From: Minisyncoccota bacterium
GTDB lineage: Bacteria > Patescibacteriota > Microgenomatia > UBA1400 > PJMF01
Direction of reading: 5' to 3'
Length of the DNA: 64,000 bases
NCBI GenBank assembly: GCA_003173865.1
Contig: PJMF01000019.1
Location: 6,381-70,380, forward strand
In this document: in pieces, positions 29,517-55,754 of the stretch
Position numbering within the stretch: the first letter of the stretch is position 1
Layout: each line of letters starts with the position of its first letter
The notes under the pieces: model-generated
What the model was told of the DNA's origin: nothing
Seen by the model: the letters and a program-made list of their open reading frames with translations, nothing else
Database searches by the model: none
Position numbers and translations under genes: made by a program

Positions 29517-30346
29517 TCCAGATTAAAACTTTCTCTGTCTTTTATTTCTTGAACAATCTTATCGATAATTTCTCGATATGAATACTGCGGCAACTTCAAT
29601 TTTTTTAATCGACCAAGGTCTCCTTCAATAATTGGAGTTGTATCATGAGCATCGAATGGTACAACGCTAACTCCAAACTGGCTTAAAATATCACTAGCAA
29701 TATCAAAACGAGATTTCAGTTCTTGAACTGCAATAGAAATAATTTCATTCCAAATTTCTTTTTGAATAATTATTCTAATCACTTCTGAGATATGACCTAA
29801 ATGAGAAGGTTGGAACTTCCACGATGTATCATATTCAGCCTTCGTTCCCTGATCAAGATTTTTGAGAATACGATTAAACGGGCGATCATTTATCGTGTTG
29901 GGACTCATTCCTATGATCAGTGAAGGACGCAAAACTGCAAATCCGGCTGAAGTACTTTCCACATACTCTTCACTTTGTGCTTTGGTTTTTCCATAAACAT
30001 TAATAGGATTAATAGCCGCGTAAGAAGAAATTAAAATTATTTTTTCTTTGTGTTTGTTTGCCACTGAGACTAAATTTTGTGTGGCTGTTTGGTTTAAAGA
30101 AATTGCTAGCTCTGGATTTGCTTCACACCAGCGCGCATTTGCATTAGCGGCGGCATGAATAATTATTTCAGGTTGAAATTGGCGAACGATATCTTCTAAT
30201 GCTGCAGCATCAGTAATATCTAACTCAACAAAACTTGAGCTAAGCTTGGTACTATGACAAGTTCCAATAACTTCAAAGTCTCTACTTAAATCAAGATAAA
30301 GCCGAGCACCCACGTAGCTACTTGCGCCGGTCAAAAGAATTTTCAT
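29513..30346 (-). CDS. NAD(P)-dependent sugar epimerase/reductase, RmlD-like (dTDP-4-dehydrorhamnose reductase family)
   Basis: A Rossmann GxxGxxG-like MKILLTGASSYVGARL, the catalytic YGKTK (YxxxK) and ~277 aa. 4-nt overlap with the upstream ATP-grasp gene. Confidence 0.75.
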   Translation of the reverse strand: MKILLTGASSYVGARLYLDLSRDFEVIGTCHSTKLSSSFVELDITDAAALEDIVRQFQPEIIIHAAANANARWCEANPELAISLNQTATQNLVSVANKHKEKIILISSYAAINPINVYGKTKAQSEEYVESTSAGFAVLRPSLIIGMSPNTINDRPFNRILKNLDQGTKAEYDTSWKFQPSHLGHISEVIRIIIQKEIWNEIISIAVQELKSRFDIASDILSQFGVSVVPFDAHDTTPIIEGDLGRLKKLKLPQYSYREIIDKIVQEIKDRESFNLD

Positions 30347-31743
30347 GCCAGCAACCTTTCCATCTCTTCTTCGATTTTGAGGGCACGTTGTTTATTTTTG
30401 CCAAAAACTACATATCCAAATTGGTGACGCGCCAGCAAGTTCGCAGATCCCACAATGACCCCTTCTTCAGTTTTTTTATCAAAAAGGACTGGCACTAATC
30501 GTTGCAATAAACCGTCGAACGTCTTGAGAGATGTGTCAGTAATTTGGTACATATTATTAGAAAGTGTAAATGTCTCATGCATGAAGTCCTCACCAAAAAG
30601 TTCTTTTGCGACGTGATAGACATGAGTCCCACCTGTACGGCGAACATTTGACTCTGTGACGTAAATCTCACCATTTTTAGCAGCCACAAAATCGACATCA
30701 TAGTATCCACGATAACCTTGAGTCGCGTACTGCTCACCAATATAAAATCCCGTATCAATCATTTGCGTCGCCACTTTTTCGGGTAAAACGTCTTTATGAA
30801 TTTCGACACCTTTAAAAACACCATCTTTCGTCACGCGCATTCCACAAAAATAAAGCAACTTCACTTCACCAGTTTTCAAAATTTTAAACTCTACATTCGG
30901 GCACCCACCACCCAGAGATGAATTGATATTTACCAACTCTTCCACCACAATGGAAAACTTATCCCAGTACCCATCTTTTTTGAGGTGAGCCAAAATCGCT
31001 TGCTCACACTCCGCAAACGTCGCAGGTAAATCGCCCTCACGCCAAATAAACATACCTGCACCCGAGTGACCTTTATTGATTTTGAGCACAACCCCTTTTT
31101 CTTTGACATACATCTTGGCAGCAATCTTGGCTGTATCAATCATTTCCGAACTCACCATTCCGTATGACATCTTGAAGTCAGGCTCTTTCGCTACACTCTG
31201 CTGCGCAAGTTGGCGGATACCAGATTTACTCCCATAAAAATTGACAGTCCAGGAGTCTGGTTCTTCCGGCGCTTGCGGAGTAGAGACGATAATTCCCATC
31301 TCGCGTAATTTTTTCACTAATTCTAGAAATTGATAACTCGTTGAGTAACTGATTACAGTAAGCTTCTTGCTCGTGTGTGCAAACGCACAAATTTTCTCTA
31401 GAAGCTTCTCATCAGCCAAAATATCTTTACAAATCTGTCCTGTATTTTGTTTGGGTACCCACACGTCTGCATTTTTTTTGCCGAATAATTTTGTATTGTA
31501 CTCCCAAAAAAGCGGCTCAATACTCTGCGGCAAAATCATCCGAATATTATCTTTGCCCGCAAATGAAAGAAGATCGCGATCTGACAGTAAAGAGTTTTCG
31601 TTAATTTCTCTTAGGCGCGCTTCCAGATCTGAAATTTCCGAAATAAACGACCACACATCTTCGGAAAGATTTGATATGTAGAGAGTGTTTGTAGAAGCTA
31701 AAGGAAGAGAAGTGGGATCAGGTTCAGAATGTTTTTCTGACAT
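30343..31743 (-). CDS. ATP-grasp family carboxylate-amine ligase (about 200-aa N-terminal domain plus ATP-grasp core)
   Basis: ATP-grasp signatures KINKGHSGAGMFIW, …EELV…, DVDFVAAKNGEIYVTESNVRRTGGTH. Start chosen at MSEKHSEP (ATG at 31743, AT-rich promoter upstream). The longer ORF to 32070 would overlap the divergent ABC gene by about 300 nt. Confidence 0.75.
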   Translation of the reverse strand: MSEKHSEPDPTSLPLASTNTLYISNLSEDVWSFISEISDLEARLREINENSLLSDRDLLSFAGKDNIRMILPQSIEPLFWEYNTKLFGKKNADVWVPKQNTGQICKDILADEKLLEKICAFAHTSKKLTVISYSTSYQFLELVKKLREMGIIVSTPQAPEEPDSWTVNFYGSKSGIRQLAQQSVAKEPDFKMSYGMVSSEMIDTAKIAAKMYVKEKGVVLKINKGHSGAGMFIWREGDLPATFAECEQAILAHLKKDGYWDKFSIVVEELVNINSSLGGGCPNVEFKILKTGEVKLLYFCGMRVTKDGVFKGVEIHKDVLPEKVATQMIDTGFYIGEQYATQGYRGYYDVDFVAAKNGEIYVTESNVRRTGGTHVYHVAKELFGEDFMHETFTLSNNMYQITDTSLKTFDGLLQRLVPVLFDKKTEEGVIVGSANLLARHQFGYVVFGKNKQRALKIEEEMERLLA

Positions 31744-31773
31744 AGAAAACACAGTATAACATATAATGTATAT

Positions 31774-33513
31774 ATGTCTTTTCCGATACTTCTCTGGCAG
31801 TACATTCGTCCATATAAAATAAAATTTTTCTTCGCTGTTTTTTGTCGTCTCACAAGCGACATTGCTCAACTCTATCCCATTTGGGCGTTGGGACAAATCG
31901 TGTCTCTGCTTACTCAAGGTTTCACTTCTCCTTTTCCGTTCCTGATGATTCTCATCGGATGGCTTTTTACGGTGGTGTATCAAGGCATAGTCAGAGAAGG
32001 TGCGAAGTTCTTTGGTTTTCAAGTTGCCGAACAAAGTTCTCTTGATTTTCTCAATGACTGTCTGGAGCACATTTTTTTACTTGATTTTGCGTGGCAAGAA
32101 AAAGAAAACAGTGGCAATAAAATGAAACGCATTGATAAAGCCAAAGATGCGATGAATGATCTGATTCGTCAATTTTTTGTGGTTTTAATTGAAGTAAGTG
32201 TAAATACTGGAGGAATTATCCTCTTTTTATTTTCACTCGAGAGATCACTCAGCCTTGCGCTGTGTGTCTTTATCGTCATCTATTATTGGCTTGGCATTAA
32301 ACTTTTGAAAAAAGCTATTTATCAAGCTAATATCGTCAATCAACACACCGAAGAAATGTATGGATTTATGTTTGAACTACTCAATAACATTCGTACTGTG
32401 AAGTCACTTGCATTAAATCATCAAATGACACAACGGATTCGCCAGCAAGCAACGCTCTTAATGGACGCGATCAAAAAGAGAATTTTTTGGTATCGAACTC
32501 AAAGCGGTACGCTCAATACATTCGAGATGGTTTTTGAGTTTGTTATGGTGTGTGTCATTTGTTGGGGCATCATCCACAAATACTACGATATTAGTTTACT
32601 CATTGTTTTTGTAGGCTTCTATCAGAAAGTTACTGAATCAACTCGAGAACTTACCGAAGTTACTCAAAATATTGTGGAAGATAAAATTACGATTCTGCGT
32701 GCACTTGCTGTCTTACGTACACCAGCCCATATTGAAGATCCGCAGAAACTATCCAAGCAAGTTACTTATCCACACAACTGGCAAAAATTAAGTATCCGAA
32801 ACGTGAGCTTCCAGTATCATAATGCTCAAGTCCTAAAGAACATTAACTTAACAATTCACCGGGGAGAAAAAGTCGGCATTGTGGGTTTATCTGGAGCAGG
32901 GAAGTCGACATTGTTTAAACTTTTACTTGATTTATACGAAGATTACGAGGGAGACATTTTACTTGATGACATTTCCCTCCGAGATATTCGACGGCAGTCA
33001 TATATTGAACATGTTTCTGCCGTACTTCAAGAAACTGAACTCTTTAACATGTCAATTAAAGACAATATTCTTTTGGCTGGAGTAGAAGGAAAAGAAATAA
33101 GTGATCAACAATTTGCAGATGTGCTTCGTGTCTCACACCTAAATGAATTTATTGAAAAGCTCCCCCTTCAACTTCAAACAGTTATTGGTGAAAAAGGAAT
33201 TAAACTTTCTGGTGGACAACGGCAACGTCTCGGCATCGCACGTGCACTATATCGCCAGCCTGATCTACTTTTATTTGATGAAGCGACTTCGCATTTAGAC
33301 GTTCTCTCAGAGAAATATATTCAGTCTTCTCTTGATTCCATTTCCAAACATTTAACCACTATCGTCATTGCTCACCGCCTCTCGACCATTAAACATATGG
33401 ATAAAATTGTGGTTCTCGAAAAAGGTCACATCATTGAGGAAGGCAGTTTTGACGAGTTAATCAAAATTAAGGGTCACTTCGCACACATGTGGCACTCTAC
33501 ATTGGCGAGTTGA
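31774..33513 (+). CDS. ABC exporter, fused permease-ATPase (type I exporter, no N-terminal peptidase domain)
   Basis: Six-TM N-terminal half, Walker A GLSGAGKST, signature LSGGQRQRLGIARAL and Walker B LLLFDEATSHLD. Confidence 0.9.
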   Translation: MSFPILLWQYIRPYKIKFFFAVFCRLTSDIAQLYPIWALGQIVSLLTQGFTSPFPFLMILIGWLFTVVYQGIVREGAKFFGFQVAEQSSLDFLNDCLEHIFLLDFAWQEKENSGNKMKRIDKAKDAMNDLIRQFFVVLIEVSVNTGGIILFLFSLERSLSLALCVFIVIYYWLGIKLLKKAIYQANIVNQHTEEMYGFMFELLNNIRTVKSLALNHQMTQRIRQQATLLMDAIKKRIFWYRTQSGTLNTFEMVFEFVMVCVICWGIIHKYYDISLLIVFVGFYQKVTESTRELTEVTQNIVEDKITILRALAVLRTPAHIEDPQKLSKQVTYPHNWQKLSIRNVSFQYHNAQVLKNINLTIHRGEKVGIVGLSGAGKSTLFKLLLDLYEDYEGDILLDDISLRDIRRQSYIEHVSAVLQETELFNMSIKDNILLAGVEGKEISDQQFADVLRVSHLNEFIEKLPLQLQTVIGEKGIKLSGGQRQRLGIARALYRQPDLLLFDEATSHLDVLSEKYIQSSLDSISKHLTTIVIAHRLSTIKHMDKIVVLEKGHIIEEGSFDELIKIKGHFAHMWHSTLAS

Positions 33514-38347: not shown

Positions 38348-41300
38348 TTACTTCAAATCCTCATCTTCGTTTCTGTACCATGTGTAGTAGACCGCCGGGA
38401 TGAAAAGCAACATAATCGTACTAGAAATCAACAGTCCAGAAATGATCGCACCACCCAAACCGCGCCAAAGAGGATCAGACAGCGTAATAGGTAAAAGCCC
38501 CAAGACTGTACACAGTTTCGTTAAAATAATCGGCTCCAAACGACTTGCTCCTGCGTCGGCAATAGCTTCTTTCAACTTCATTCCTTGACGTTTGTTAATA
38601 TTAATTTTGTCCACGATAAACATCGAGTTCGTCACGACAATACCAAAGAGGGACAGTACACCAATTAATGCAGGAAACGAGAGCGGCGTCCCCGTAATCG
38701 CAAAGAGCAAGAACACACTTGAAACAGCCAGTGGAATCACCATCAACACGATAATTGCTTGACGGAATGATCCGAACTGCACCACCATCGTAATTAAAAT
38801 CAAGATAAACGCGAGGACCATAGCCTGCAAAATCGAGTTGACTGACTTGGCATTTTCCTCGTTCACACCACCGGTTTGCCAGGAGTATCCATTATCCAAG
38901 TGCAAAGAATCGGCGTATTTTTCTAAACCCTTATTTAGCTCAACAGAAGAGTATCCTTTTGTCACAGTCGCGCTCACGGACATCGTGCGATTGCCATTTT
39001 CGCGTGTGATAACCGTTGGATTATATTTGGCTTGAAAACTTCCCAAAGAGAGTAACGGATATGAAGTTCCATTTGGAGAGACCACGTTGAGTTCACCCAA
39101 CTTCTTTGGATCTGGGTAATTTGTATCGACTTTAAACATAATATCTGTTTTGTCAGGTCGCGATTTATCAAAATTAAATGAGTCAAGCGTGAAGCCACTC
39201 GCATACATACGCATCGTCGCACCGATTTGATCGACAGAAATGCCAGTGTCCGCTAATTTTGCATAATCAGGCACAAAAACAAGACGACTCGTACCAGATT
39301 TAATCGATTTCTCGACATTCGTGACACCAGCTTGTTTTTGTAAATAACCCACAATTTGATTGGCATAACCATCTAATCTACTCAAGTCATCACCTTTGAG
39401 TTTGATCTGTAAGTCTGCACCTGCTGGAGGTCCGCCACTTTGTTCAATGACAGAGAGTTTCCCAACAGAATACTGGGCAAACTTATCGCGCAAGTTCTGC
39501 GCAATCGTCATGGACTTCACATTTCGGTCTTCTTTTGGTTTCAAATGCAACGAAAAGAGCACTATACTGTCTGCATTTGCTGAGGCACCAAACCCACCTG
39601 GAGCACCTTGACCCACTTCCATAATGACAAACTCAGTTTCTGGTGTTTGGGCAATTTGGGCGACGAGTTTTTGTGCCTCAACTTCACTTTTTTGAGCTGG
39701 AGTTCCGGCTGGATAATCGACTGTAATATAAATCACGTCTTGATCAGATTTAGGAAAGAACTCTCCAGTCACGAAACCTAACGGCAGTAAGGAAAAACTC
39801 ATGACCGCATACAAAACAATCGCGATAATGACTTTCATGCGAGCGGCTCGACTATTAAGAATGCGTAAAATTAAGTTGTGGTACCACCGGCTAAAACCTT
39901 CTACATCAATCACACCATGATCAGTAAAACGAATCAGCAGCTGTCGACCTCGATTAAGAAATGAACGTTTCGTGATAAAACTTCCAACTCGCTGAGTAAT
40001 GATCGGGAATACGTGATATAGGACGAACAAAAATGCTACATACAGGACTCCAATGAGGGGCAACAAAGGATTCTTGGAAAAAAACATGAACAAAAAAATA
40101 AATGAAACAATCAATAACGCAACTTGAGCTATCATCTTGACTCGGGGTGGGAAGCTCGGTTTCAACAACACAATCATCAACGGCAGTGTAATTAACACCG
40201 CAATAGCAGTTGACGAAATCATCGTAATTGTCACCACAATTGGAATCGGTTTGATAAACTCACCGATAATACCCGTACTTAAAAGGAGCGGTACAAAGGA
40301 CCAAATCGTAGTAATTGTTGTTGACCAAATCGGCACGATCGTATCTCGCCATACGAGTAAACCAGTTTCTTGTGGCGTAAATTTTCCGGTTCCGTAGTAC
40401 GTCGTCATTGCGGAAACAGTCACGATCGTGTCATCAACCAACAAACCCAACGCGAGCAAAAAAGCAAATAACGACAAAAAGTTAATTGTCATGCCAAAAA
40501 ACTGCATGAAGAAAAATGCGCTCAAGAAAGTTAACGGGACGGTAAACGAAGAAATAATCGCTTGACGTAAACCTAAAAACAGAAATAAACAAATGAACAC
40601 CAGAAGAATGGTCGAACGAAATTCGCGTAACAAATCACTAAATTGTTTCGTAATTTTGTCACTCGTATTGATCAGTGTCACGATCTCAAATTGATTGGGA
40701 TACTTTTGTTTGAACTCATCGACAGCAGTCTTGATTTGATTCCCAGCTTCATCAATATTTGAGGAACTCGATTTATAGACATTAAACGTCACGGCACGCT
40801 GGGGTGTTTGCTGTGAAGTAAAAACAAATGAGCGCTGCGCGTCGATTTTAGTGCGTTGTTCAACTTGAGCAATATCAGCTAAGTTCACTGTTTTTCCTTG
40901 GACAGTTAACTTGATGTTTCGAATATCACTTACTTTATCAACACTGGGATCAATGCTGACCGCAAACGTGTTATTGGCATCTTGAACTGAGCCAGCGGGA
41001 TAAGAAGAGAGCGCCTTCTTTAAAGTCTGTGACAAGAGAAGGGGATTCAGACCGAACTGTTGAAGTTTTTCGGCATCCACAGAGACTACAATTTCTTGAT
41101 CATTGAAACCCGATGTAACGACACGATCTACTTTTGAAAGATCAGTGATTTTTTTCTTCAACTCATCAGCAATCGCCATCAACGAACTTTCATCACTCTT
41201 CCCAACAACGGCAAACGTCCAAATTGGCTGATCTTCAAAGTCGAGAGCAGTGACTTTTGGTTTCTTGGAGTTATCTGGCAGATCTGTAAATGAATCGATA

Positions 41301-41698
41301 ATCGACTGCACATCTTTTTTCGCGTTTTCGCGATCTATACTGGAAAGAAACTGCATACTGATAAACGAGACGTTATCTTGTGACGAAGAAGTCATCGTAT
41401 CGAGACCTTTTACAGTACGCAAACTGTTCTCCAGCGGAATCGTCAACAACGACTCAACATCTTGTGGCGAAGCACCCGGGAGCACAGTTGACACTGTCAC
41501 AATGGGGATCTTCACCTCTGGATTAAGACGTTTCGGCAAGTTAATATACGTCACCACACCTAACAAAGTAATCGCAATGGCGAGCAAAATCACAATTCGA
41601 ATGTTTTGAATATACTTCGAGACCACAGTAGTCATCAGTTTGGGATCAAACCGGAGACGATCGAGGTAGGAGAGTGATTGTTCCTGCTTTTTTTTCAT
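38348..41698 (-). CDS. RND-superfamily efflux transporter permease (AcrB/HAE-like, 12-TM with two large periplasmic loops)
   Basis: 1116 aa with an N-terminal TM, then IPIVTVSTVLPGASPQDVESLLTIPLENSL typical of the AcrB porter domain, and a duplicated 6-TM architecture. Confidence 0.9.
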   Translation of the reverse strand: MKKKQEQSLSYLDRLRFDPKLMTTVVSKYIQNIRIVILLAIAITLLGVVTYINLPKRLNPEVKIPIVTVSTVLPGASPQDVESLLTIPLENSLRTVKGLDTMTSSSQDNVSFISMQFLSSIDRENAKKDVQSIIDSFTDLPDNSKKPKVTALDFEDQPIWTFAVVGKSDESSLMAIADELKKKITDLSKVDRVVTSGFNDQEIVVSVDAEKLQQFGLNPLLLSQTLKKALSSYPAGSVQDANNTFAVSIDPSVDKVSDIRNIKLTVQGKTVNLADIAQVEQRTKIDAQRSFVFTSQQTPQRAVTFNVYKSSSSNIDEAGNQIKTAVDEFKQKYPNQFEIVTLINTSDKITKQFSDLLREFRSTILLVFICLFLFLGLRQAIISSFTVPLTFLSAFFFMQFFGMTINFLSLFAFLLALGLLVDDTIVTVSAMTTYYGTGKFTPQETGLLVWRDTIVPIWSTTITTIWSFVPLLLSTGIIGEFIKPIPIVVTITMISSTAIAVLITLPLMIVLLKPSFPPRVKMIAQVALLIVSFIFLFMFFSKNPLLPLIGVLYVAFLFVLYHVFPIITQRVGSFITKRSFLNRGRQLLIRFTDHGVIDVEGFSRWYHNLILRILNSRAARMKVIIAIVLYAVMSFSLLPLGFVTGEFFPKSDQDVIYITVDYPAGTPAQKSEVEAQKLVAQIAQTPETEFVIMEVGQGAPGGFGASANADSIVLFSLHLKPKEDRNVKSMTIAQNLRDKFAQYSVGKLSVIEQSGGPPAGADLQIKLKGDDLSRLDGYANQIVGYLQKQAGVTNVEKSIKSGTSRLVFVPDYAKLADTGISVDQIGATMRMYASGFTLDSFNFDKSRPDKTDIMFKVDTNYPDPKKLGELNVVSPNGTSYPLLSLGSFQAKYNPTVITRENGNRTMSVSATVTKGYSSVELNKGLEKYADSLHLDNGYSWQTGGVNEENAKSVNSILQAMVLAFILILITMVVQFGSFRQAIIVLMVIPLAVSSVFLLFAITGTPLSFPALIGVLSLFGIVVTNSMFIVDKININKRQGMKLKEAIADAGASRLEPIILTKLCTVLGLLPITLSDPLWRGLGGAIISGLLISSTIMLLFIPAVYYTWYRNEDEDLK

Positions 41699-41726
41699 GG
41701 AAACTCTTCGCTTTATTACTTGAGTG

Positions 41727-43160
41727 TTATGACTTGAAGGCTACTTTTTCTTTTTCAATAACGTTGCGGTCAAGAATGACCTGATCATTCGTTTGAAGAC
41801 CGTCGATCACTTCAACGTACTCACCATACACATTGCCCAGTTTGACTGCACGAGATTTCGCAACGGTATCGTTGCCATCTTTTTCAGCGACAAACACTGA
41901 CGCACTGGTCGGAGTTTGATAAACCGCATCTAACGGAATGAATGGATAGGATGAATTGGCGTAGTTTACTCCTACTGGCACGTCAATTTGAACAAAACTA
42001 TTATTCGAAAGCTCAGCTGCATATGTTTGAGGAATTGGATAAATCACTGAAAATAAACCCCCATCAGTGGGTTCACTAGAAATAGATCGCGGCATGGCTG
42101 CTACTTTCTGGTCATTAATTTTCAAGTAACTTGGCTCTGTCTTCGACAATTGCCCAGCAATTTCCTGAGAAACAAGCAAAACGGCAGTCGCCATATTGAC
42201 GTCGTTACGAATGCTGGCAAGCGGGGTACCTGGTGTCACTGCTTGGCCAACTTTTACGTAAATCCGCTCAATTGTGCCGGCCGAGGGAGCAACTGGGTAC
42301 ATTAATGACTCATTGACTTGATTAATCCGCACATTCAACTCTGCAAGATCGCGATTCAGATCAAGAGTGCGCTCTTGCAAATCGAGCTGCTTCAATGTTA
42401 GGTCACGTTGAGTAATGGCAATTTGAGCAGGTTCCTTCGAGTCATCTGCCAAATATTGATTACTCCGGAGAGCTTGTTTGGCAGCATTAAAACCAGCCAA
42501 AATCTGTGCTTTAAGCTGCTTTGTCTGCAGGAGGGAAGCACTTGCCGTCGCGCCAGGTGTATCCGAGAGGGTATTAATCTGGGCATCCATACTGGCGATA
42601 ATGTCGTTATCTAAGTTAATGAGGGAACTGGTTTCGTCAAATGACTGACGAGTAATTGAGCGAAGCTGACTTGCTTGCGTTTCCCCCAGTTGGGCAATAC
42701 TGCGCTGCTTGTTGAGCATATCTTTTTGATCAGCTAAGTTCTGGTCAAGAAAATTAAAGTTACGTTGGGCGACCTGACGATTCAAACTCGCGATATTGCC
42801 CCCTTGATAGTTTGTCGAAAGATTGAAAAGAGTTACCCCACGCTTGACGTGAGCCCCCTCGGAAAAACGAATTTTTTGGACAATACCACTACTCTGAGCA
42901 ACGAGTTGGATAACACCAGATTTCTCAATTTTGGCTTCCATCTCAATTTGGGGAGTGGATCCAAGGGGAAACACTTGTACAACCTTTGGCGCTGCTTCCG
43001 CCTGGGGGACAGTTGCGGGAGGTTTGCGAAGCTGGTTACCAATCGCGACGATAACGACTAAAAGAATGAGTAGCCCAATAAAACTGCTAAAAGGACGCGC
43101 AGTAACGAATTTTTTGACCTTTTGAGATACCTGAAGAAAGGAGGATTTGATTCTATTCAT
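41727..43160 (-). CDS. Efflux periplasmic adaptor (membrane fusion protein, HlyD/AcrA-like). An alternative start at 43205 is possible.
   Basis: An N-terminal TM anchor, a long coiled-coil hairpin (LKAQILAGF…LDLQERTLDLNRDLAELN), flanking biotinyl-lipoyl-like and beta-barrel segments. 28-nt spacing to the RND gene. Confidence 0.8.
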   Translation of the reverse strand: MNRIKSSFLQVSQKVKKFVTARPFSSFIGLLILLVVIVAIGNQLRKPPATVPQAEAAPKVVQVFPLGSTPQIEMEAKIEKSGVIQLVAQSSGIVQKIRFSEGAHVKRGVTLFNLSTNYQGGNIASLNRQVAQRNFNFLDQNLADQKDMLNKQRSIAQLGETQASQLRSITRQSFDETSSLINLDNDIIASMDAQINTLSDTPGATASASLLQTKQLKAQILAGFNAAKQALRSNQYLADDSKEPAQIAITQRDLTLKQLDLQERTLDLNRDLAELNVRINQVNESLMYPVAPSAGTIERIYVKVGQAVTPGTPLASIRNDVNMATAVLLVSQEIAGQLSKTEPSYLKINDQKVAAMPRSISSEPTDGGLFSVIYPIPQTYAAELSNNSFVQIDVPVGVNYANSSYPFIPLDAVYQTPTSASVFVAEKDGNDTVAKSRAVKLGNVYGEYVEVIDGLQTNDQVILDRNVIEKEKVAFKS

Positions 43161-43258
43161 GAAGATCTTATTATACCCGAATTCTTGAAATAATTCAAGA
43201 CCCATAATGATATTATTTGAGTCTTTGTATCGAGTGAGAACTGAGCGCTATAATATAG

Positions 43259-44962: not shown

Positions 44963-45088
44963 GTATACGAGGCGTAAAATTTACTCAACTCATAAGAATT
45001 TTTTATTTATTTCTTACATTAGCGTGTTTTTTTCTACAATATCTTTTGTTTATTTAATTATTAATTATTTATTACTCATGTTTTGTTT

Positions 45089-46699
45089 ATGAAAAAGAAT
45101 CTTTCTAAAAAACCAATTGTGAATAACGAAGAAGAGTATATTCCAGAGGAATCCACTTCACACACTGATGAAATAGCTGCTGATCATGCCCATGGAGGCC
45201 ACGGCAGTCGTCCCCGTAATCTTGGTGTTTTAGAGGCGTTATTTCACCTCGACGCCGACTGGGGTACATCACTTGCATATATTCTTCCACTTGGCTTAGC
45301 GTTAACTGGTCGCCTCGCACCTGTCTACATGTTGATCATTGCCTTCATTATGTTTTTGGTGGCAAATGGTTACAAGATTGTGTGTCGTCACAACCCAGAT
45401 GGTGGTGGCGTGTATTCTTCTTTAAAGAAAGTAAATAAATTTTTAGCTGTGGTTGGTGCCTTGCTTTTAGTCACCGACTACGTAGTCACCGAAGCATTGA
45501 GTGTTTCCGATGCGTATCACTACTTACACATCGATCAAATCGTTCCTCCAAGTGTAGCTCATGCATTTCCTTCATTTTTGCCAACTAGCTCGTTGTGGAC
45601 GATCTTGATCATTATCTTCCTGACTATTATCAACTGGCGTGGTCCACACTTTAGTGCAAAATTTGCTGGCATTGCTTCAAGTGCCACTTTTTTCTTGGCC
45701 GGTTTACTTGCAGTGTTAGCACTCCCACTCGTTCCCGCTGGTTTAGCAAATATTGGTCACTTTAACCAATCAATTTGGGATATTTTGCGCAACACAACAG
45801 GTGTGCTCTTAGCACTTTCCGGTGTCGAGGCAATCTCAAACATGACGGGTATTATGAAAGATCCAGTGGGCACAAGTCGCCGCGCGATTAACTTAGAGTT
45901 AGTTAAAGTGATTTTCACCACTGTCATTCTTGGTATTGCCATGAATGGCTTGCCAAATAGCGTTGTGTATGAAGGTCACCAAGTCGGTGGCCAATTTGTT
46001 GTTGACACTGCTCAACGCGAAGTGACTGATCTTGGCTGCGTCATGAACGTCGTCAAAGCCAAAGTAGTTGGATCAAACTTTGAGTGTGTGAAACGAACTG
46101 AAAACGTTGCTCGCGCAGACATGCTCGTGGCGATGGGTGAGTATTTAGCCCCCGGAATTATTGGTAAAGGGTATGGCTGGTTAATTGGGGTTGCTTATGG
46201 ACTCTTGCTCATTTTTGCTGGCAACACAGCCTTAATTGACATTACGAACGTCACATACGCCCTCGCACGTGATGAAGAACTGCCTCACGGCTACACCAAA
46301 TTGAATAAAAAATATGGTGTCCCGATTTGGGGTCTTTTCACTGCTTGTTTCATGCCAATCGCAACTGTTCTCGTGGTCGGTTCAAGTATTGAAGCTCTTG
46401 CTGCCTTATACGCAATTGGTGTCGTCGGTGCAGTCACTATGAACTTAGCGGGCACCGCCTTGCAAGTAAAGGGTGGAGAACGAGTCATTGCTGCCGTTGG
46501 TGCATCCGTCATGGCAGTCTTGTTCGTCACTTTAGTGGTCACGAAGATGGAAGCAACGCTCTTTGCTTCAGTGGTGTTAGTACTTGGTTTATCTGCGCGC
46601 GCAATTCAAAAGAAGTTTGCAAGCAATGATAGCAACTCAGCAGGAGACGACCAAACTTCATCAAACTTGGAGTACGCAACAGCTCCAGTCAAAGAGTAA
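45089..46699 (+). CDS. APC-superfamily amino acid/polyamine permease with a hydrophilic N-terminal extension
   Basis: About 12 hydrophobic segments and glycine-rich helices typical of the APC fold. The ORF opens at 45083. Confidence 0.7.
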   Translation: MKKNLSKKPIVNNEEEYIPEESTSHTDEIAADHAHGGHGSRPRNLGVLEALFHLDADWGTSLAYILPLGLALTGRLAPVYMLIIAFIMFLVANGYKIVCRHNPDGGGVYSSLKKVNKFLAVVGALLLVTDYVVTEALSVSDAYHYLHIDQIVPPSVAHAFPSFLPTSSLWTILIIIFLTIINWRGPHFSAKFAGIASSATFFLAGLLAVLALPLVPAGLANIGHFNQSIWDILRNTTGVLLALSGVEAISNMTGIMKDPVGTSRRAINLELVKVIFTTVILGIAMNGLPNSVVYEGHQVGGQFVVDTAQREVTDLGCVMNVVKAKVVGSNFECVKRTENVARADMLVAMGEYLAPGIIGKGYGWLIGVAYGLLLIFAGNTALIDITNVTYALARDEELPHGYTKLNKKYGVPIWGLFTACFMPIATVLVVGSSIEALAALYAIGVVGAVTMNLAGTALQVKGGERVIAAVGASVMAVLFVTLVVTKMEATLFASVVLVLGLSARAIQKKFASNDSNSAGDDQTSSNLEYATAPVKE

Positions 46700-46706
46700 G
46701 CGAGAA

Positions 46707-47672
46707 CTAGTCAAGATGTTTGCGGTGAAATGCTTTCAAAGCGGCATGAACGATGTGAGGGACATCCATTCCGTACTTGATGAGCAGCTCCTCAGGTTTT
46801 CCTGATTCCCCAAAATGGTCAGGCATACCAACAAACTCAATTGGCACAGGACAGTTTTGAGCTGTGAACTCTGCCACCGTGCTACCTACACCGCCGTACA
46901 TTTGATGTTCTTCAACAGTGACAACAGCCTTTGTCTTATTTAACGAAGTAAGCAACGTCTTTTCATCTAACGGTTTAATTGTGTGGAGATTAATGACTTC
47001 TGCACTGACATTCTTTTTTGCGAGCACTGCTGCCGCTTGTAAAACCTTGCCCAGAAGTGGTCCACTTGCAATAAGAGTCACATCTTTACCTTTTTTCATG
47101 ACCTGAGCTCGACCAACTTCAAATGGTGTGTCACGAGTTGTAATAAGTGGGGAGGGAAAACGAGAAAGGCGAATATACACAGGTCCTACGTATTCAGCTG
47201 AAGCTACAGTAGCCTTTTCTGCTTCAAGCGCATCACACGGATAAATGACCGTGAGATTTGGTAAAACCCGCGTCATCGCAATATCCTCTAAGGCTTGATG
47301 GGTCGCACCATCTTCGCCAACGGTTAAACCGGTGTGCCCACCAATAATTTTGACGTTTGCCTGCGAGTAACACACACTCACTCTGAGTTGATCCCAGCTG
47401 CGGCCAGGGCTAAACACCGCATAACTGGCCACAAATGGCACTTTCCCAGCAAGTGCTAACCCCGCACCGATCCCCATGAGATTCTGCTCTGCCACACCAA
47501 CTTCAATGAAGCGGTCCGGAAATTCTTGTGCGAAAAGGCGAGACCTTGTCGATTCAGCAAGGTCAGCAGTGAGAACTACAACATTCCGATTCTTCCGTCC
47601 TGCTTTGACAACTCCTTCCCCGTAGCCATCTCGCGTTGCTTTGTGTGGTTGTGAAACATTATCCTTCTGCAC
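46707..47672 (-). CDS. Transketolase, C-terminal subunit (pyrimidine-binding and C-terminal domains) of a split transketolase
   Basis: …EFPDRFIEVGVAEQNLMGIGAGLALAGK…, 321 aa. Overlaps the N-terminal subunit gene by 14 nt. Confidence 0.9.
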   Translation of the reverse strand: MQKDNVSQPHKATRDGYGEGVVKAGRKNRNVVVLTADLAESTRSRLFAQEFPDRFIEVGVAEQNLMGIGAGLALAGKVPFVASYAVFSPGRSWDQLRVSVCYSQANVKIIGGHTGLTVGEDGATHQALEDIAMTRVLPNLTVIYPCDALEAEKATVASAEYVGPVYIRLSRFPSPLITTRDTPFEVGRAQVMKKGKDVTLIASGPLLGKVLQAAAVLAKKNVSAEVINLHTIKPLDEKTLLTSLNKTKAVVTVEEHQMYGGVGSTVAEFTAQNCPVPIEFVGMPDHFGESGKPEELLIKYGMDVPHIVHAALKAFHRKHLD

Positions 47673-48510
47673 GAATTTTTCCTCCCAAACTACGTAACTC
47701 TTGTAAAGCTAATTGGGCTTGTGCCGGGTCGGGCGCTTTACCATGCCATTCTGGTTTCCACTGCATAAACTCAACTCCCTTTCCCGGAATGGTGTGCGCA
47801 ATGATTGCCACTGGTTGCTCGAAAATCGCCACAGCTTGATGACAGGCACCAATAATGGCTTGCATGTTATGTCCATCGATTTCGATCACATGCCAACCAA
47901 AAGCTTCATACTTCTTGCGAAACGGTTCCAGTGGCATCACGTCTTCTGTGTAGCCGTCAATTTGAATATTATTTCGATCAATAATCGCAGTGAGATTGGC
48001 AATTTTCTTTTTGCCGGCAAATAAAATAGCTTCCCAAGTTTGTCCTTCGTCATGTTCACCATCACTCATCATGCAGTAGATTTGGTTATTTTTTCCATCT
48101 ATTTTTGCTGCCAATGCCATGCCAATTGCTTGGGATAATCCTTGACCCAATGGACCACTTGAGTTTTCTAGTCCTGGCAATGCCAAGCGATGTGGATGGC
48201 CTTGGAGAGGAGAACCGAGTTTGCGAAGCGTTAATAACAGTGATCGCGAGAAGTATCCTGCGTGTGCGAGCGCCGCATACAGTACTGGACAAATATGACC
48301 ATTGGATAAAACCAATTTATCGCGGTCTGACCATTGAGGATTGTGGGGATCGTGTTTTAACACTGCAAAGTACAGCGCCGTAAAAACATCAGCCATTCCC
48401 AGTGCACCTGCCGCGTGTCCCGACCCTGCCAAACTAAGCATTTTGACAATATCTTCACGAATCAAAAGGGCGCGCTGTTCTAGGTCAGTAAGAGATAATG
48501 GTGCAGTCAT
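47659..48510 (-). CDS. Transketolase, N-terminal subunit (TPP-binding domain)
   Basis: The TPP-binding GDG motif region …CMMSDGEHDEGQTWEA… and …GHPHRL…GPLGQGLS…. Confidence 0.9.
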   Translation of the reverse strand: MTAPLSLTDLEQRALLIREDIVKMLSLAGSGHAAGALGMADVFTALYFAVLKHDPHNPQWSDRDKLVLSNGHICPVLYAALAHAGYFSRSLLLTLRKLGSPLQGHPHRLALPGLENSSGPLGQGLSQAIGMALAAKIDGKNNQIYCMMSDGEHDEGQTWEAILFAGKKKIANLTAIIDRNNIQIDGYTEDVMPLEPFRKKYEAFGWHVIEIDGHNMQAIIGACHQAVAIFEQPVAIIAHTIPGKGVEFMQWKPEWHGKAPDPAQAQLALQELRSLGGKIRAEG

Positions 48511-48534: not shown

Positions 48535-51500
48535 TTACCCTTGTCTCTCCAACTTATTCCACCCTACGTAATTGCCTTGAACTGCATTCATCACTGACTT
48601 CACGACGACGTAGTACATGAGTTGTCTGTAGAGAAGACGCTGCCAAAACAACCACAGTAACAATCGATAGTCTTCTTTTTTTTCTAACAAAAACGCTAGG
48701 AGCGCCGCACCAAAATCAATTCCCACGAACAACAAATAAAAGAAAAGGATACGTTGAAAGCCACCATATGCCCAATCTTCAGGATGTTGCAGCTGGGTTA
48801 AAAATCCAGTCACCAAGGAAGACACCACCAGAAAGTCCATGAGAGGCGAAATAAATGGAAAGAAAACTTGGAAAATCAGCACGTTTGGTAACGCAATGTA
48901 TCCCAGTTTTTTATTCTTGCTCGTTAAAAACGAAAACCGATGTTTCCACACAACTTGCAAGGTGCCAAATGTCCACCGGAAACGCTGTTTTAAGAAACTT
49001 CCTATCGTAACTGGCGCTTCTGTGTACGCAATCGCTTCATCCTCATATTCTACAAGGTATCCACGCTCTAAAATACGTAACGTCAAGTCAGTATCTTCCG
49101 CCAAGGTATCTCCCACAAAGCCACCACTTTGTTTGACTAAAGTAGTATGCCAAGCCCCAATTGCGCCGGGAACCACAGTAATACAATTTAAAAAGGCAAA
49201 TGCCTGACGATCAAGATTTTGACTGGTAATATACTCAAGCGCTTGCCACTTCGTCAAAAAATTTTGACGATTTCCGACTTTTGCATTTCCCGCCACTGCG
49301 CCAATGCGCGGATTCACAAAGTGTCGCACTAACTTGGCAATCGCATCTTTATGCAAGCGTGTGTCAGCATCCATCGCAACGATAATTTCTGACTTCGCTT
49401 TGCTCAACGCAAAGTTCAAGGCAGCAGCTTTGCCCTCATTATGAATTTTATATAACTGGACTAGAGGATGCTGGCTAAATGTGTGTTGCAATCTTTGATA
49501 CGTGCGATCACTCGAACCATCATCTACGACAATCACTTTATACTTTGCGTACGTTGAACGTAAAACAGAGTGGACAGTTGCCACAATTACTTTTTCCTCG
49601 TTGAATGCTGGAATTAAGACCGTGACAGTCGGCTGATAGCAATCATCAAATTTTTTCAAGGAATTCCGTCGTGTATTCACTACTGCTAAGGCACCCAAAA
49701 AGAGTAAGCGCGTCGTTCCTAAAACAATACCCAGTAAAAAGAGTACCGGAATTAAAATTCCCACCCAGCGAAAAACGTTGAAACCAATTGTAAATGTTTG
49801 CGCTTGGAGTTTTTGATCTGAAGTTGCTAGGGGCATCACGTCACTGCGTTTTAAACCAATTAAGTCTGCAATATTCACAAACGTATAGCCATCTTCACGG
49901 AGTTTGTCGATAATTTGCGGTAAAGCTGCTACCGTCTGTGAACGATCGCCGCCGCCATCATGCAACAAAACAATATTTCCCTCACCATTTTCAACTTCGT
50001 CGATCGTTGTTTGCACAATTTGATCGACACCTGGGCGCTTATAATCCTTGGGATCAATATTCATTCCCACCGTGTAGTAACCCAACTTACTGGTATATAC
50101 AAGCGGCCTAACTTGGTCAGATGTTTCCGGTTCCACATCTTCGGCATAGGGTGGACGGAATAATAGAGTGTCACGACCCAAGCGGCTTTCGAATAAACGC
50201 TCGGTTGAGTTAATTTCTAATGCCCATTGCTGCGAGGGAATGGAAGAAAGATTCGGATGCGTAAACGTATGATTCCCAACTTCATGATTTTCGTCAAACA
50301 TCCGTTGCAGTATCTGTGGATATAAATCCGCCTGAGAACCAATCACAAAAAAAGTCGCAGGGACTTGCTTTTCTTTCAAAACATCTAAAATGCGCGGCGA
50401 GTAGTAAGGATCGGGACCATCATCAAAAGTTAACACTACTTTTTTTTCTTGCTGGCCGCCCCAACGAGTGATGATATATGGTAGCGGCGGAGAAGTTAAT
50501 GTGCTCGTCATGATTAAGCCTAAGGCATTGTCGTATCCCACTTGGCGAGTTCCGTCTTGGGGAGTAGCCGTGACTTGCAAAATCTCTCCTTTGCCTTGAT
50601 AGTGCACATCGTAACCATAATGCATTTGTTGCAGTTGCTGAGCCAAGTTACTGTCGATTTTTGTTCGACCAGCCGTCACATTCCAAATCGAGGGATCTTC
50701 GGTACCCAGCCGCCAAATAGCCCATCCACGAGGCTTGTAAAGCCGACTGGTTTGTAGTTGATTAAAAAACGTTACACCATCGAGATACCACACCGTATGC
50801 TGGGTTCCATTCGCATCTTTATACTGAAAACTCGGGTTGAGCAGAGTAGAGTCAAGAGCTGGCTCGAGACTCGCACTTTGCACGCGCTGCATGACTTGTT
50901 GAAAAGAAAGTACTTCGGCGCGTGAACCTTTATCTATCCAGTCATACCCATATGTGCCCAGTGCAATAACGTATTTATTAGGCGGCAAATCAGCTAAATC
51001 TTTTTGCAACTGCGCATTAAACCAACCTTGGGAGGCAACCGGACCAGCTTCACTCGCATCCCAATGTTCGTCGTACATCATGAAAATCAAGTAATCCACC
51101 GTTTGGCTCAACTCTTTGTAGTTGAAGTCGTCATCGTCCGCTGGGACAGCCTCAGTAACCTGCAGATGTGCAGCATGAAAATTTGCCGCCAGTTCTTGCA
51201 TGTAGATCTGAAGAAAAGGTTGATCTTGGGGAGCGACATTTTCATAATCGATCGTGATACCACCTGCGTTACGCGCTAAAACATATTGCTTAAGGAAAAA
51301 AATATTTTGAAATCGACTTTGCGGATCGCGTAACATTTTACTTAATCGTTTTTGATCCCAGTCTTGGGTTTCCCTATTGAAGTTATTTACTAATGGAAGA
51401 ATTTGCAGTGTCGGTTTACGCTGTTGAACCAGATCAAGTACCTGCTTTTCTCTATCAAGGTCATCAATCGTCAATTGATCGGGTTGATCACTCAAGTGCA

Positions 51501-51933
51501 ACCACTCGGGCATGAGGATATCAAGCTCTCCGATATTTCTTTTGAGTGAAGTAAAACTTGTGTCGTCCCAGTTGACGTAAAAACCGATGATCTGAGAGTT
51601 TGTTTGTGTAGATGAAGCAGAAGTCCCCCACTTTTTGCGTTGATTGGTTTTAAGGTAAGTGAGCAGTTGCTCTTTGGTTTGTTGATACGTCACTTCCTTC
51701 CGCTGAGAGGTATTTTTGGGTTGCACGGCAATCAAGTGATGGGTTTGACTGAATGTCTGTACGGATTGTAAAGCAAGGCTAGGCAACTGCGGATTTTTAA
51801 TTAAGTTGTAAAGAAATACTGCACCGACCACACACGCCCATGCCCCCAAACTCTTGAGGAACCAGGAAATCCACCACCATCTTCGCTTGTGAGGGTCGTA
51901 AAAGACTGGCTTTGTCTCAAGCTTTTTCTTCAT
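48535..51933 (-). CDS. Tri-domain membrane enzyme: N-terminal TM, GH18-like domain, CE4 (NodB) polysaccharide deacetylase, then a processive GT2 synthase with C-terminal TM helices
   Basis: GH18-like GGITIDYE (D.D.E-type) and MMYDEHW. CE4 VVLTFDDGPDPYYSPRILDVLKEK…HTFTHP. GT2 LIPAFNEE, DDGSSD, DAD, GDTLAEDTDLT (T/AED) and QRFRW (QxxRW). Start chosen at the ATG with an AGGA RBS (51933); the ORF opens at 51954 with TTG. Confidence 0.8.
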   Translation of the reverse strand: MKKKLETKPVFYDPHKRRWWWISWFLKSLGAWACVVGAVFLYNLIKNPQLPSLALQSVQTFSQTHHLIAVQPKNTSQRKEVTYQQTKEQLLTYLKTNQRKKWGTSASSTQTNSQIIGFYVNWDDTSFTSLKRNIGELDILMPEWLHLSDQPDQLTIDDLDREKQVLDLVQQRKPTLQILPLVNNFNRETQDWDQKRLSKMLRDPQSRFQNIFFLKQYVLARNAGGITIDYENVAPQDQPFLQIYMQELAANFHAAHLQVTEAVPADDDDFNYKELSQTVDYLIFMMYDEHWDASEAGPVASQGWFNAQLQKDLADLPPNKYVIALGTYGYDWIDKGSRAEVLSFQQVMQRVQSASLEPALDSTLLNPSFQYKDANGTQHTVWYLDGVTFFNQLQTSRLYKPRGWAIWRLGTEDPSIWNVTAGRTKIDSNLAQQLQQMHYGYDVHYQGKGEILQVTATPQDGTRQVGYDNALGLIMTSTLTSPPLPYIITRWGGQQEKKVVLTFDDGPDPYYSPRILDVLKEKQVPATFFVIGSQADLYPQILQRMFDENHEVGNHTFTHPNLSSIPSQQWALEINSTERLFESRLGRDTLLFRPPYAEDVEPETSDQVRPLVYTSKLGYYTVGMNIDPKDYKRPGVDQIVQTTIDEVENGEGNIVLLHDGGGDRSQTVAALPQIIDKLREDGYTFVNIADLIGLKRSDVMPLATSDQKLQAQTFTIGFNVFRWVGILIPVLFLLGIVLGTTRLLFLGALAVVNTRRNSLKKFDDCYQPTVTVLIPAFNEEKVIVATVHSVLRSTYAKYKVIVVDDGSSDRTYQRLQHTFSQHPLVQLYKIHNEGKAAALNFALSKAKSEIIVAMDADTRLHKDAIAKLVRHFVNPRIGAVAGNAKVGNRQNFLTKWQALEYITSQNLDRQAFAFLNCITVVPGAIGAWHTTLVKQSGGFVGDTLAEDTDLTLRILERGYLVEYEDEAIAYTEAPVTIGSFLKQRFRWTFGTLQVVWKHRFSFLTSKNKKLGYIALPNVLIFQVFFPFISPLMDFLVVSSLVTGFLTQLQHPEDWAYGGFQRILFFYLLFVGIDFGAALLAFLLEKKEDYRLLLWLFWQRLLYRQLMYYVVVKSVMNAVQGNYVGWNKLERQG

Positions 51934-52044
51934 AAACATCCTATAAGTGTTCAAGTATTATACCGCAAAAAAGCCTAGAATAGGGTAATCTAAAATGTCC
52001 CTTCACGTCCAGATGCTTATGACTTATACTCAAGGCACGTCTGT

Positions 52045-55283: not shown

Positions 55284-55754
55284 TTATACTCCTCTTCGCT
55301 GATCCACTAGACCGCCTCGATAGTTGGCTTGATAGATGAGCTTATTATTTTGGGTGATTTTTTCTATGCCCTCATATCTTTCAATAGTACCAGTCCAGTC
55401 GTTCGTATATAGGAAATCACCTTCTGTATATGTGGCTGGGCCACGAAAAGGAGCTTCTGGAGGCATTTTCTTCAAGGCATTACGTAAGATTGGATAGACC
55501 ATGGTCGGCTCAATACCTGAAGCCACCCAGCCATAGTACACCATTATCCAGATAGCTTTTCCTGCATGAGAAACTACTAACCTACCTCCATATGGTTCAC
55601 CACCAAAGAAGTTGTCATGTGAGCTAAATTCGCCTTTTTTATAAGGAATTGTAGTAGAGCCATCTGATTCTTTGATCCATTGTTTTTCTTCGCCAGTGAC
55701 ATAGCCAGCTTGATTTGCATCAATTAAGAATTGGCGGAGTTGTTCTAGATTCAT
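55284..55754 (-). CDS. Hypothetical protein (156 aa)
   Basis: ORF only. Aromatic and glycine-rich; no motif recognised. Confidence 0.45.
   Translation of the reverse strand: MNLEQLRQFLIDANQAGYVTGEEKQWIKESDGSTTIPYKKGEFSSHDNFFGGEPYGGRLVVSHAGKAIWIMVYYGWVASGIEPTMVYPILRNALKKMPPEAPFRGPATYTEGDFLYTNDWTGTIERYEGIEKITQNNKLIYQANYRGGLVDQRRGV

Follow-up and report, generated by a model that had tools for sequence, protein, structure and literature searches.

A GH18-CE4-GT2 membrane protein of a Patescibacteria contig as a candidate one-polypeptide machine for an N-acetylglucosamine polymer

The stretch of DNA analysed here, referred to as the window, comprises 64,000 nt of contig PJMF01000019.1, whose AtpD protein shares 82–86% identity with proteins that carry the name Patescibacteria or Woesebacteria. 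On the minus strand of the window, at 48535–51933, lies a gene for a membrane protein in which a glycoside hydrolase family 18 (GH18) domain, a carbohydrate esterase family 4 (CE4) deacetylase domain of the NodB type, and a glycosyltransferase family 2 (GT2) synthase domain follow one another on a single polypeptide. This gene, the widespread family to which it belongs, and its proposed part in producing an N-acetylglucosamine (GlcNAc) polymer are described below, with the coordinates of the gene and its neighbours given as positions in the window.

The gene and the layout of its product

The list of open reading frames (ORFs) gives an open frame at 48535..51954 (-), with an upstream TTG as its first codon. 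Translation probably starts from an ATG at 51933. This codon has an AGGA 5 nt upstream, as read directly in the sequence, and the protein read from it begins MKKKLETKPVFYDP (MKKK...), in agreement with the N-termini of homologues. From this ATG the coding sequence runs uninterrupted through 1132 amino acids (aa) to a stop codon at 48535–48537, bearing out the span of 48535–51933 and the length of ~1.13k aa assigned to the gene by an earlier note on this DNA. A scan for promoters and terminators gave no excess of matches over shuffled sequence, with a TATAAT at 51962–51957 visible by eye only. The gene and the predicted parts of its product, including its transmembrane (TM) helices, are as follows.

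48535..51933 (-): complete coding sequence of the GH18-CE4-GT2 membrane protein (ORF list and translation, ATG with AGGA, colinear with 40 homologues)
51871..51933 (-): predicted cytoplasmic N-terminal tail, residues 1–21, MKKKLETKPVFYDPHKRRWWW (7 Lys/Arg in 21 residues; PVFYDP..RRW motif)
51796..51870 (-): TM1, predicted signal-anchor helix, residues 22–46 (hydropathy peak at 22–40; AlphaFold helix 17–46)
51601..51795 (-): predicted extracytoplasmic linker, residues 47–111 (poorly conserved, mostly disordered)
50659..51600 (-): GH18 (beta/alpha)8 domain, residues 112–425 (PF00704, Foldseek, motifs)
50458..50628 (-): small all-beta module between GH18 and CE4, residues 436–492 (AlphaFold strands 451–491)
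49834..50451 (-): CE4/NodB deacetylase domain, residues 495–700 (PF01522, five motifs, Foldseek)
49660..49821 (-): TM2, long helix predicted to return the chain to the cytoplasm, residues 705–758 (hydropathy; AlphaFold helix 705–758; 4 Lys/Arg after it)
48925..49641 (-): predicted cytoplasmic GT2 (GT-A) catalytic domain, residues 765–1003 (PF13641, PF00535, PF13632, TIGR03937)
48577..48924 (-): C-terminal membrane and interface helices, residues 1004–1119 (putative translocation channel)
48538..48576 (-): conserved C-terminal tail GNYVGWNKLERQG (W-x4-R; family consensus GWGKLERK)

Full-length protein matches reach E = 0 at 45–52% identity, far beyond chance, and 40 full-length homologues in this range of identity were aligned with the query to give the 41-sequence family alignment used throughout. 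The query aligns colinearly and without gaps at columns occupied in the family, with position 3 being its sole query-specific residue, which argues against a frameshift or a chimeric join. A break of this kind, named in the earlier note as a finding that would undo its proposal, was therefore not found in the ORF.

Hydropathy, the positive-inside rule, and an AlphaFold2 model agree on a topology in which the N-terminus is predicted to lie inside, with TM1 leading to GH18 and CE4 domains outside, and TM2 returning the chain to a GT2 domain inside, with a helix bundle like that of hyaluronan synthase or BcsA. Kyte-Doolittle peaks fall at residues 22–42, 713–754, 1010–1046, and 1059–1085, with a value of 2.48 at 720–738, and 7 Lys/Arg residues in the N-terminal 21 residues compare with 1 after TM1 and 4 after TM2. 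With the 41-sequence alignment as input, AlphaFold2 gives a model of mean pLDDT 82.5 that consists of a helix at 17–46 (TM1), a disordered segment at 48–111, a (beta/alpha)8 barrel at 114–420, an all-beta module at 451–491, the CE4 domain at 498–700, a single very long helix at 705–758 (TM2), a GT-A domain at 770–1003, and long helices at 1008–1049, 1057–1083, and 1089–1119. The arrangement proposed in the earlier note, with GH18 and CE4 beyond the membrane and GT2 in the cytoplasm, is thus the one that these predictions return, with CE4 and GT2 falling on compatible sides of the membrane.

Conservation extends beyond the three enzymatic domains. F11, D13, and R18 of the N-terminal PVFYDP..RRW motif are invariant in the 41 sequences, and residues 11–30 are modelled with pLDDT values of 88–89. 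The beta module has a mean pairwise identity of 0.57, with Y439, G440, Y445, G447, G449, E450, P458, G461, R463, and R490 invariant, and an R1099-x3-R1103 pair is conserved in the last helix. G1120, W1125, and R1130 are invariant in the C-terminal tail, where the W-to-R spacing of the GW-x4-R sequence equals that of the E. coli PgaC C-terminus (...RARWVSPDRG). The linker at 47–111 has a mean pairwise identity of 0.22, and pLDDT falls below 50 at 48–80 and 96–111. Each of the PVFYDP..RRW motif, the beta module, the arginine pair, and the GW-x4-R tail may have a role, with that of the tail perhaps lying at the active site.

Catalytic residues and family spread

The GH18 domain matches PF00704 (Glyco_hydro_18) over residues 114–409 with 50.9 bits (cut-off 29.6), covering profile positions 1–314 of 317, and Foldseek searches of the PDB with this part of the model retrieve Chromobacterium chitinase 5jh8 (TMt 0.88), SleL (4s3j/4s3k), and YdhD (3cz8), placing it within GH18 by both profile score and (beta/alpha)8 fold. 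The motif GGITIDYE, at 51241–51264, carries D229 and E231, with further GH18 motifs represented by MMYD (Y287/D288), YGYDW, and W407. Residues D229, E231, M285, D288, and W407 are invariant in the 41 sequences, and Y287 is present in 40. Of the chitinase motif DxxDxDxE only D229-x-E231 is retained, with the upstream Asp positions occupied by G224 and T227 in the query, and the family consensus reading G-[IV]-[SNT]-[IV]-D-[FY]-E. The GGVTIDFE of B. subtilis YdhD shows the reduced pattern of the query, the SleL and YaaH versions are close, and by its sequence the GH18 domain belongs to the YdhD/SleL branch of spore-cortex hydrolases. The last Asp and the Glu of DxxDxDxE are essential for substrate-assisted catalysis, and SleL is reportedly an active N-acetylglucosaminidase on spore cortex despite its reduced motif, so that reduction of the motif need not mean inactivity.

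The CE4 domain matches PF01522 (Polysacc_deac_1) over residues 494–598 with 121.9 bits (cut-off 23.1), and the five motifs that define the CE4/NodB family, TFDD, H(S/T)xxH, RxPY, DxxD(W/Y), and LxH, are all present, as TFDDG, HTFTHP, FRPPY, DPKDY, and VLLHD, with D504/D505, H555/H559, R593-P-P, D627/D630, and H658 invariant in the 41 sequences. Sequence matches in the PDB are chitin and peptidoglycan GlcNAc deacetylases, including Bc1960, PgdA, and PdaC, the best NCBIfam matches include PdaB, PgdA, and PdaA, and Foldseek retrieves the B. cereus peptidoglycan deacetylase Bc1960 (5o6y, TMt 0.84) and 7fbw (TMt 0.90).

In the GT2 domain, PF13641 and PF00535 match residues 768–990 with 109 and 107 bits, several GT2 models span 768–1045, and PF13632 also matches. 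The motifs DDGS, DAD, VPGAIGAW, TLAEDTD, and QRFRW are present, with D804/D805, D855/D857, E946/D947, and Q983/R984/R986/W987 invariant in the 41 sequences, such that the D, DxD, ED, and QxxRW signatures and the adjoining membrane helices of a processive membrane synthase are all in place. Foldseek aligns this domain and its helices with Chlorella-virus and Xenopus hyaluronan synthases and with BcsA over ~450 columns. The top NCBIfam match is TIGR03937 (PgaC_IcaA), with 186.9 bits compared with 105.9 for NodC, 69 for CelA, and 34.9 for the Pfam model Chitin_synth_2, and identity to E. coli PgaC is 27% over ~350 residues (E = 5e-41). The ED motif is EDR in NodC, chitin synthases, and hyaluronan synthases, whereas it reads EDTD here and EDID in E. 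coli PgaC, which favours a PgaC-like enzyme.

All three domains, attributed in the earlier note to one polypeptide on the strength of their motifs, score above the Pfam curated cut-offs, and each of these motifs lies where it had been placed, with GGITIDYE, MMYDEH, TFDDG, HTFTHP, DDGS, DAD, TLAEDTD, and QRFRW all located in the protein. With mean pairwise identities of 0.54 (GH18), 0.62 (CE4), and 0.65 (GT2) across the 41 sequences, the domains are about equally conserved, and none resembles a decayed relic.

A search of 5.8 billion proteins returned 263 matches at E <= 1e-10, and all 120 of the matches listed carry PF00704, PF01522, and a GT2 domain, with query coverage of 88–100% and mostly 99–100%. 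Nearly all of those listed are ~1130–1150 aa long, a few being truncated or N-terminally extended, and they derive from Acidobacteriota, Bacillota, Cyanobacteria (Calothrix, Fischerella, Brasilonema), and Patescibacteria (Moraniibacteria, unclassified). A scan of GTDB with one genome per species found confirmed relatives in at least 590 species genomes; the best 80 of these at least 590 are nearly full-length, with most spanning almost the whole query, and include Granulicella, Bryocella, Sphingomonas, Phenylobacterium, Gemmatimonadota, Verrucomicrobiia, Anoxybacillus, Armatimonadota, and a cyanobacterium. In all, the fusion spans around ten phyla. Members of the family are ~1130 aa long, with the same domain order and invariant residues and 37–52% identity over 99–100% of their length, the best match to the query being 52% identical. 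When the GH18 domain and beta module are used as the query, 435 clusters at 50% identity are found at E <= 1e-30, and the matches nearly always begin at around residue 100–130 of a ~1130-aa protein or lie in a truncated metagenomic fragment, indicating that this branch of GH18 is essentially specific to the fusion.

Full-length colinearity and the same three Pfam domains make the query a divergent, ordinary member of a widespread family already catalogued in databases, and the fusion itself is no discovery. RefSeq labels members of the family 'glycosyltransferase', and JGI labels them 'cellulose synthase/PNAG synthase-like glycosyltransferase/peptidoglycan...deacetylase', where PNAG is poly-N-acetylglucosamine. 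A glycosyl-hydrolase-like CDD model, cd06549, is presumably the one named 'GH18_trifunctional'. The earlier note, which describes the three activities as usually separate, needs correcting in that the architecture is no rarity, with the same fusion present in at least 590 species genomes and a CE4-GT2 protein, MatB, already characterised (PMC5972031).

Some members carry N-terminal additions, with P0057 (1555 aa) having a Ser/Thr kinase domain (PF00069/PF07714) and P0067 (1383 aa) having PF07335, suggestive of regulated variants. An N-terminal extension of ~540 residues is found in P0245 and P0252 (~1545 aa).

Proposed function and rival explanations

We consider it probable, at roughly 0.68, that the gene encodes a self-contained machine that, on one polypeptide, synthesises a GlcNAc polymer, removes part of its N-acetyl groups, and trims it. 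The domains, the invariant residues, and the predicted topology support such a synthesis, deacetylation, and trimming machine, as the earlier note had proposed it, as the best in-silico interpretation of the locus. The cytoplasmic GT2 domain would link N-acetylhexosamine units into a chain, with GlcNAc supplied as UDP-GlcNAc being the most likely sugar. In the manner of PgaC, BcsA, and hyaluronan synthase, it would push this chain out between its own membrane helices, which would form the channel. Outside, the tethered CE4 domain would strip some of the N-acetyl groups to leave a cationic, adhesive polymer, and the tethered GH18 domain, as a retaining, substrate-assisted N-acetylglucosaminidase or chitinase-type enzyme, would cut or remodel stretches that are still acetylated, for example in length control, chain release, or re-attachment. 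The machine would do so without partner genes. In the Patescibacteria cell the product may serve as matrix, in adhesion, or as a surface layer. Judged by its AtpD, the bacterium that carries the gene probably belongs to the Candidate Phyla Radiation (CPR), which makes the epibiotic lifestyle mentioned in the earlier note plausible. For this stretch the result is a confident annotation, namely a one-gene module for making and tailoring a GlcNAc-type surface polymer, which may reasonably be considered for a role in adhesion or in forming a matrix. Trimming is the step in which the earlier note stands only in part: the GH18 domain and its D-x-E residues are there, whereas peptidoglycan is an alternative substrate, and since only D-x-E is kept and the domain groups with the YdhD/SleL branch, cutting of the protein's own product is something we infer.

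Several observations weigh against this reading. The closest relatives of the GH18 domain are spore-cortex peptidoglycan hydrolases, the nearest NCBIfam model of the CE4 domain is PdaB, and several of its top PDB matches are peptidoglycan deacetylases. None of the specific equivalog models is reached, with the NodB model TIGR04243 scoring 147.2 bits against a cut-off of 240, the NodC model TIGR04242 scoring 105.9 against 550, and the PgaC_IcaA score amounting to less than half of its cut-off of 422.3 bits. Diderm bacteria are also among the carriers of the family, and no outer-membrane exporter is conserved in them, leaving the route to the surface unexplained there, and literature searches yielded no experiment or paper on the tri-domain GH18-CE4-GT2 family. 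Furthermore, the domains appear to disagree on linkage. The substrates known for GH18 enzymes and for canonical five-motif CE4 enzymes of the NodB type contain β-1,4-linked GlcNAc, as in chitin, Nod factors, N-glycans, and peptidoglycan, and to our knowledge no GH18 cuts β-1,6-linked PNAG. By sequence resemblance the GT2 domain is PgaC/IcaA-like, suggesting a β-1,6 linkage, whereas the GH18 and CE4 domains are like enzymes of β-1,4-linked GlcNAc or peptidoglycan, such that a β-1,6 PNAG-like and a β-1,4 chitin- or chitosan-like polymer seem roughly evenly probable. The known PNAG hydrolases belong to GH20 and GH153 (PMC5933820), and the study of MatB faced the same conflict of linkage, which experiment settled in favour of PNAG (PMC5972031).

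A more specific proposal, which we regard as possible and distinctly speculative, is that the family comprises bacterial one-polypeptide synthases of the chitin/chitosan type (β-1,4-GlcNAc/GlcN, GlcN being glucosamine), with GH18 acting mainly as a transglycosylase that would cross-link the nascent chain or anchor it to the wall. It is retained because the exodomain families are known from β-1,4 substrates, the catalytic residues are intact, and no study of the family was found. If it is true, a single gene would provide Patescibacteria with an adhesive layer at the surface for attaching to host cells.

The same affinities of the exodomains can be read in terms of the cell wall. The CE4 domain would then deacetylate peptidoglycan GlcNAc, and the GH18 domain would be a peptidoglycan N-acetylglucosaminidase, the two opening or modifying the wall where the polymer exits or anchoring the polymer to it by transglycosylation. 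This fits the top GH18 relatives (YdhD, SleL, and YaaH), which are cortex peptidoglycan hydrolases sharing G-G-[IV]-T-I-D-[FY]-E, and the best CE4 matches in NCBIfam (PdaB, PgdA, PdaA) and the PDB (Bc1960, PgdA, PdaC), which are peptidoglycan deacetylases. However, a covalent tether to a processive synthase that is kept across some ten phyla with very different walls is a better fit to action on the nascent product, and the CE4 domain scores equally well against NodB and chitin deacetylases. The CE4 domain of MatB is likewise 'peptidoglycan/chitin-like', yet it is part of a PNAG system (PMC5972031). A role of the exodomains in the wall is, on this evidence, unlikely.

Less probable again is a GH18 domain that has no catalytic activity and serves as a lectin-like carrier in the way of a chitinase-like protein; it would only bind and guide the polymer and leave two enzyme activities rather than three. 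Reduction of DxxDxDxE to D-x-E, with the two upstream Asp positions filled by A/S/G and S/N/T across the family, would suit such a carrier. Chitinase-like lectins have typically lost the catalytic Glu, whereas here the catalytic acid E231, its partner D229, D288, and the conserved Trp do not vary in the 41 sequences, and Y287 does so in one. SleL, furthermore, has the same reduced motif and is said to have measured N-acetylglucosaminidase activity.

A fused NodC/NodB-like system producing short chito-oligosaccharides, with GH18 setting or degrading oligomer length, is highly improbable, for while both NodB (147 bits) and NodC (106 bits) models match and the membrane helices are few (one before GT2 and two or three after it, likewise the case for NodC), both scores lie far below their equivalog cut-offs with PgaC_IcaA scoring higher, the ED motif is EDTD and not EDR, NodB is cytoplasmic whereas the CE4 domain here is predicted to be extracytoplasmic, and the fold aligns with the channel-forming hyaluronan synthases and BcsA over ~450 columns.

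Genomic setting and comparison with known systems

Downstream of the gene by 24 bp, on the same strand, lies a transketolase split into two genes at 46707–47672 and 47659–48510 (-), which overlap by 14 nt, one encoding the N-terminal thiamine pyrophosphate-binding part and the other the pyrimidine-binding and C-terminal part; co-transcription of the split transketolase with the tri-domain gene is possible. An HD-domain gene lies upstream in divergent orientation, with genes for a flavodoxin, a major facilitator superfamily transporter, a resistance-nodulation-division (RND) pump, and a CHASE3 kinase nearby. Operon partners of the PNAG type (PgaD/IcaD/MatA-like, IcaC-like, or a PgaA-like porin) were looked for among the neighbours in the window and none was found, nor was any other accessory gene for exopolysaccharides. 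The gene also stands alone on the unassigned metagenomic contig that carries the closest homologue, in a metagenome-assembled genome of Moraniibacteria, a CPR lineage, and on the Bacillus and Deinococcus plasmids described below.

Among 80 related loci, clustering of the flanking ORFs gave one recurrent neighbour, a PMT_2 (GT-C, ArnT/PMT-like) polytopic membrane protein of ~470–520 aa found at 34 loci (within L002–L076; for example 6522–7964 in L010 and 6164–7693 in L036), nearly always divergent and directly upstream, and mostly in Acidobacteriota with a few other lineages. It is absent from the window and may be a lineage-specific partner.

PLSDB holds 32 plasmids or secondary replicons with full-length copies, annotated simply as 'glycosyltransferase', from Deinococcus, Bacillus mycoides (many plasmids), Sphingobium, Novosphingobium, Prevotella nigrescens, and Sulfitobacter. 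On Bacillus mycoides plasmid p322 (L082) the gene is bracketed by IS6-family transposases at 5565–6272 and 12263–12949 of that locus, an arrangement like that of a composite transposon, and the copy on a Deinococcus plasmid (L083) has an IS630 transposase ~2 kb upstream and a sensor diguanylate cyclase gene directly downstream. The patchy phylogenetic spread, the association with plasmids and insertion sequences, and the absence of partner genes are what a self-sufficient module that moves horizontally would be expected to show. Large, mobile, and partner-free, the family is an attractive minimal system for studying the coupling of polymerisation, deacetylation, and hydrolysis, and might show whether chitosan-like polymers are made by bacteria. 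A link to cyclic di-GMP was considered as a family trait and rejected, with a GGDEF gene lying within the flanks (~2 kb) at 1 of 69 loci, in addition to the Deinococcus plasmid.

Other features of the window stand apart from this gene. The RND-type genes at 38348–43205 (-) encode an AcrB-type transporter (1116 aa) and an HlyD-like adaptor (492 aa), a tripartite-pump core that is unexpected for a CPR cell, with no outer-membrane factor seen near 38348–43205. A class-I (archaeal-type) lysyl-tRNA synthetase of 780 aa is encoded at 4880–7222 (+), where TIGR00467 covers residues 6–543 and leaves a C-terminal extension of ~240 residues. ORFs of 580 aa at 24426–26168 (+) and 575 aa at 30343–32070 (-) have no family match in an NCBIfam scan, and one of 538 aa at 45083–46699 (+) has none in a Pfam scan and resembles, by eye, a polytopic membrane permease. 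The 575-aa ORF overlaps that of an MsbA-like ATP-binding cassette transporter (31774–33513, +) on the opposite strand by ~300 nt (31774–32070), and probably one of the two is over-extended or no gene. A DUF5680 protein of 156 aa is encoded at 55284–55754 (-) among unannotated neighbours.

With regard to characterised enzymes, YdhD, SleL, and YaaH are the top sequence and fold matches of the GH18 domain and have the same reduced motif. They differ from the query in being soluble or LysM-bearing enzymes of sporulation and germination that act on cortex peptidoglycan, with no fusion to a synthase. On the chitin/chitosan proposal, the family would be a bacterial counterpart of the fungal combination of chitin synthase, chitin deacetylase, and Crh-type remodelling.

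The PNAG systems are comparable in logic. PgaC and PgaB (with PgaD and PgaA) of E. coli and Bordetella, and IcaA and IcaB of staphylococci, share the logic of synthesis, deacetylation, and limited hydrolysis, but do so with separate proteins, and PgaB has the order CE4 then GH153, whereas the query has GH18 then CE4. In PgaB, deacetylation is coupled to limited hydrolysis of the same polymer, with its (beta/alpha)8 C-terminal GH153 domain acting once deacetylation has taken place and resembling GH18 and GH20 folds (PMC5933820). Homology of the ectodomain to PgaB was considered and rejected, with the BLASTP alignment confined to 41 residues around TFDDG (E = 3e-6) and leaving the GH domain without a match; the likeness to PgaB is one of functional analogy and not of homology.

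Streptomyces MatB (SCO2962) is the nearest protein to have been studied. It is bifunctional, with a CE4 domain outside the cell, a single TM helix, and a PgaC-like GT2 domain inside, and the PNAG that it makes is required for Streptomyces to aggregate and adhere (PMC5972031). The query has the same CE4-TM-GT2 layout, as compared by published architecture, with an extracytoplasmic CE4 domain, a single TM helix, and a cytoplasmic PgaC-like GT2 domain, and it shares with MatB a CE4 domain like chitin and peptidoglycan deacetylases and a GT2 domain like PgaC, hence the same ambiguity. There is no GH18 domain in MatB, which acts together with MatA and a neighbour of the IcaC type, whereas the query has an extra N-terminal anchor, a GH18 domain, and a beta module, and is without partner genes. 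MatB and PgaB together provide two experimentally supported precedents for the logic of synthesising, deacetylating, and trimming a polymer that is proposed here for a single polypeptide.

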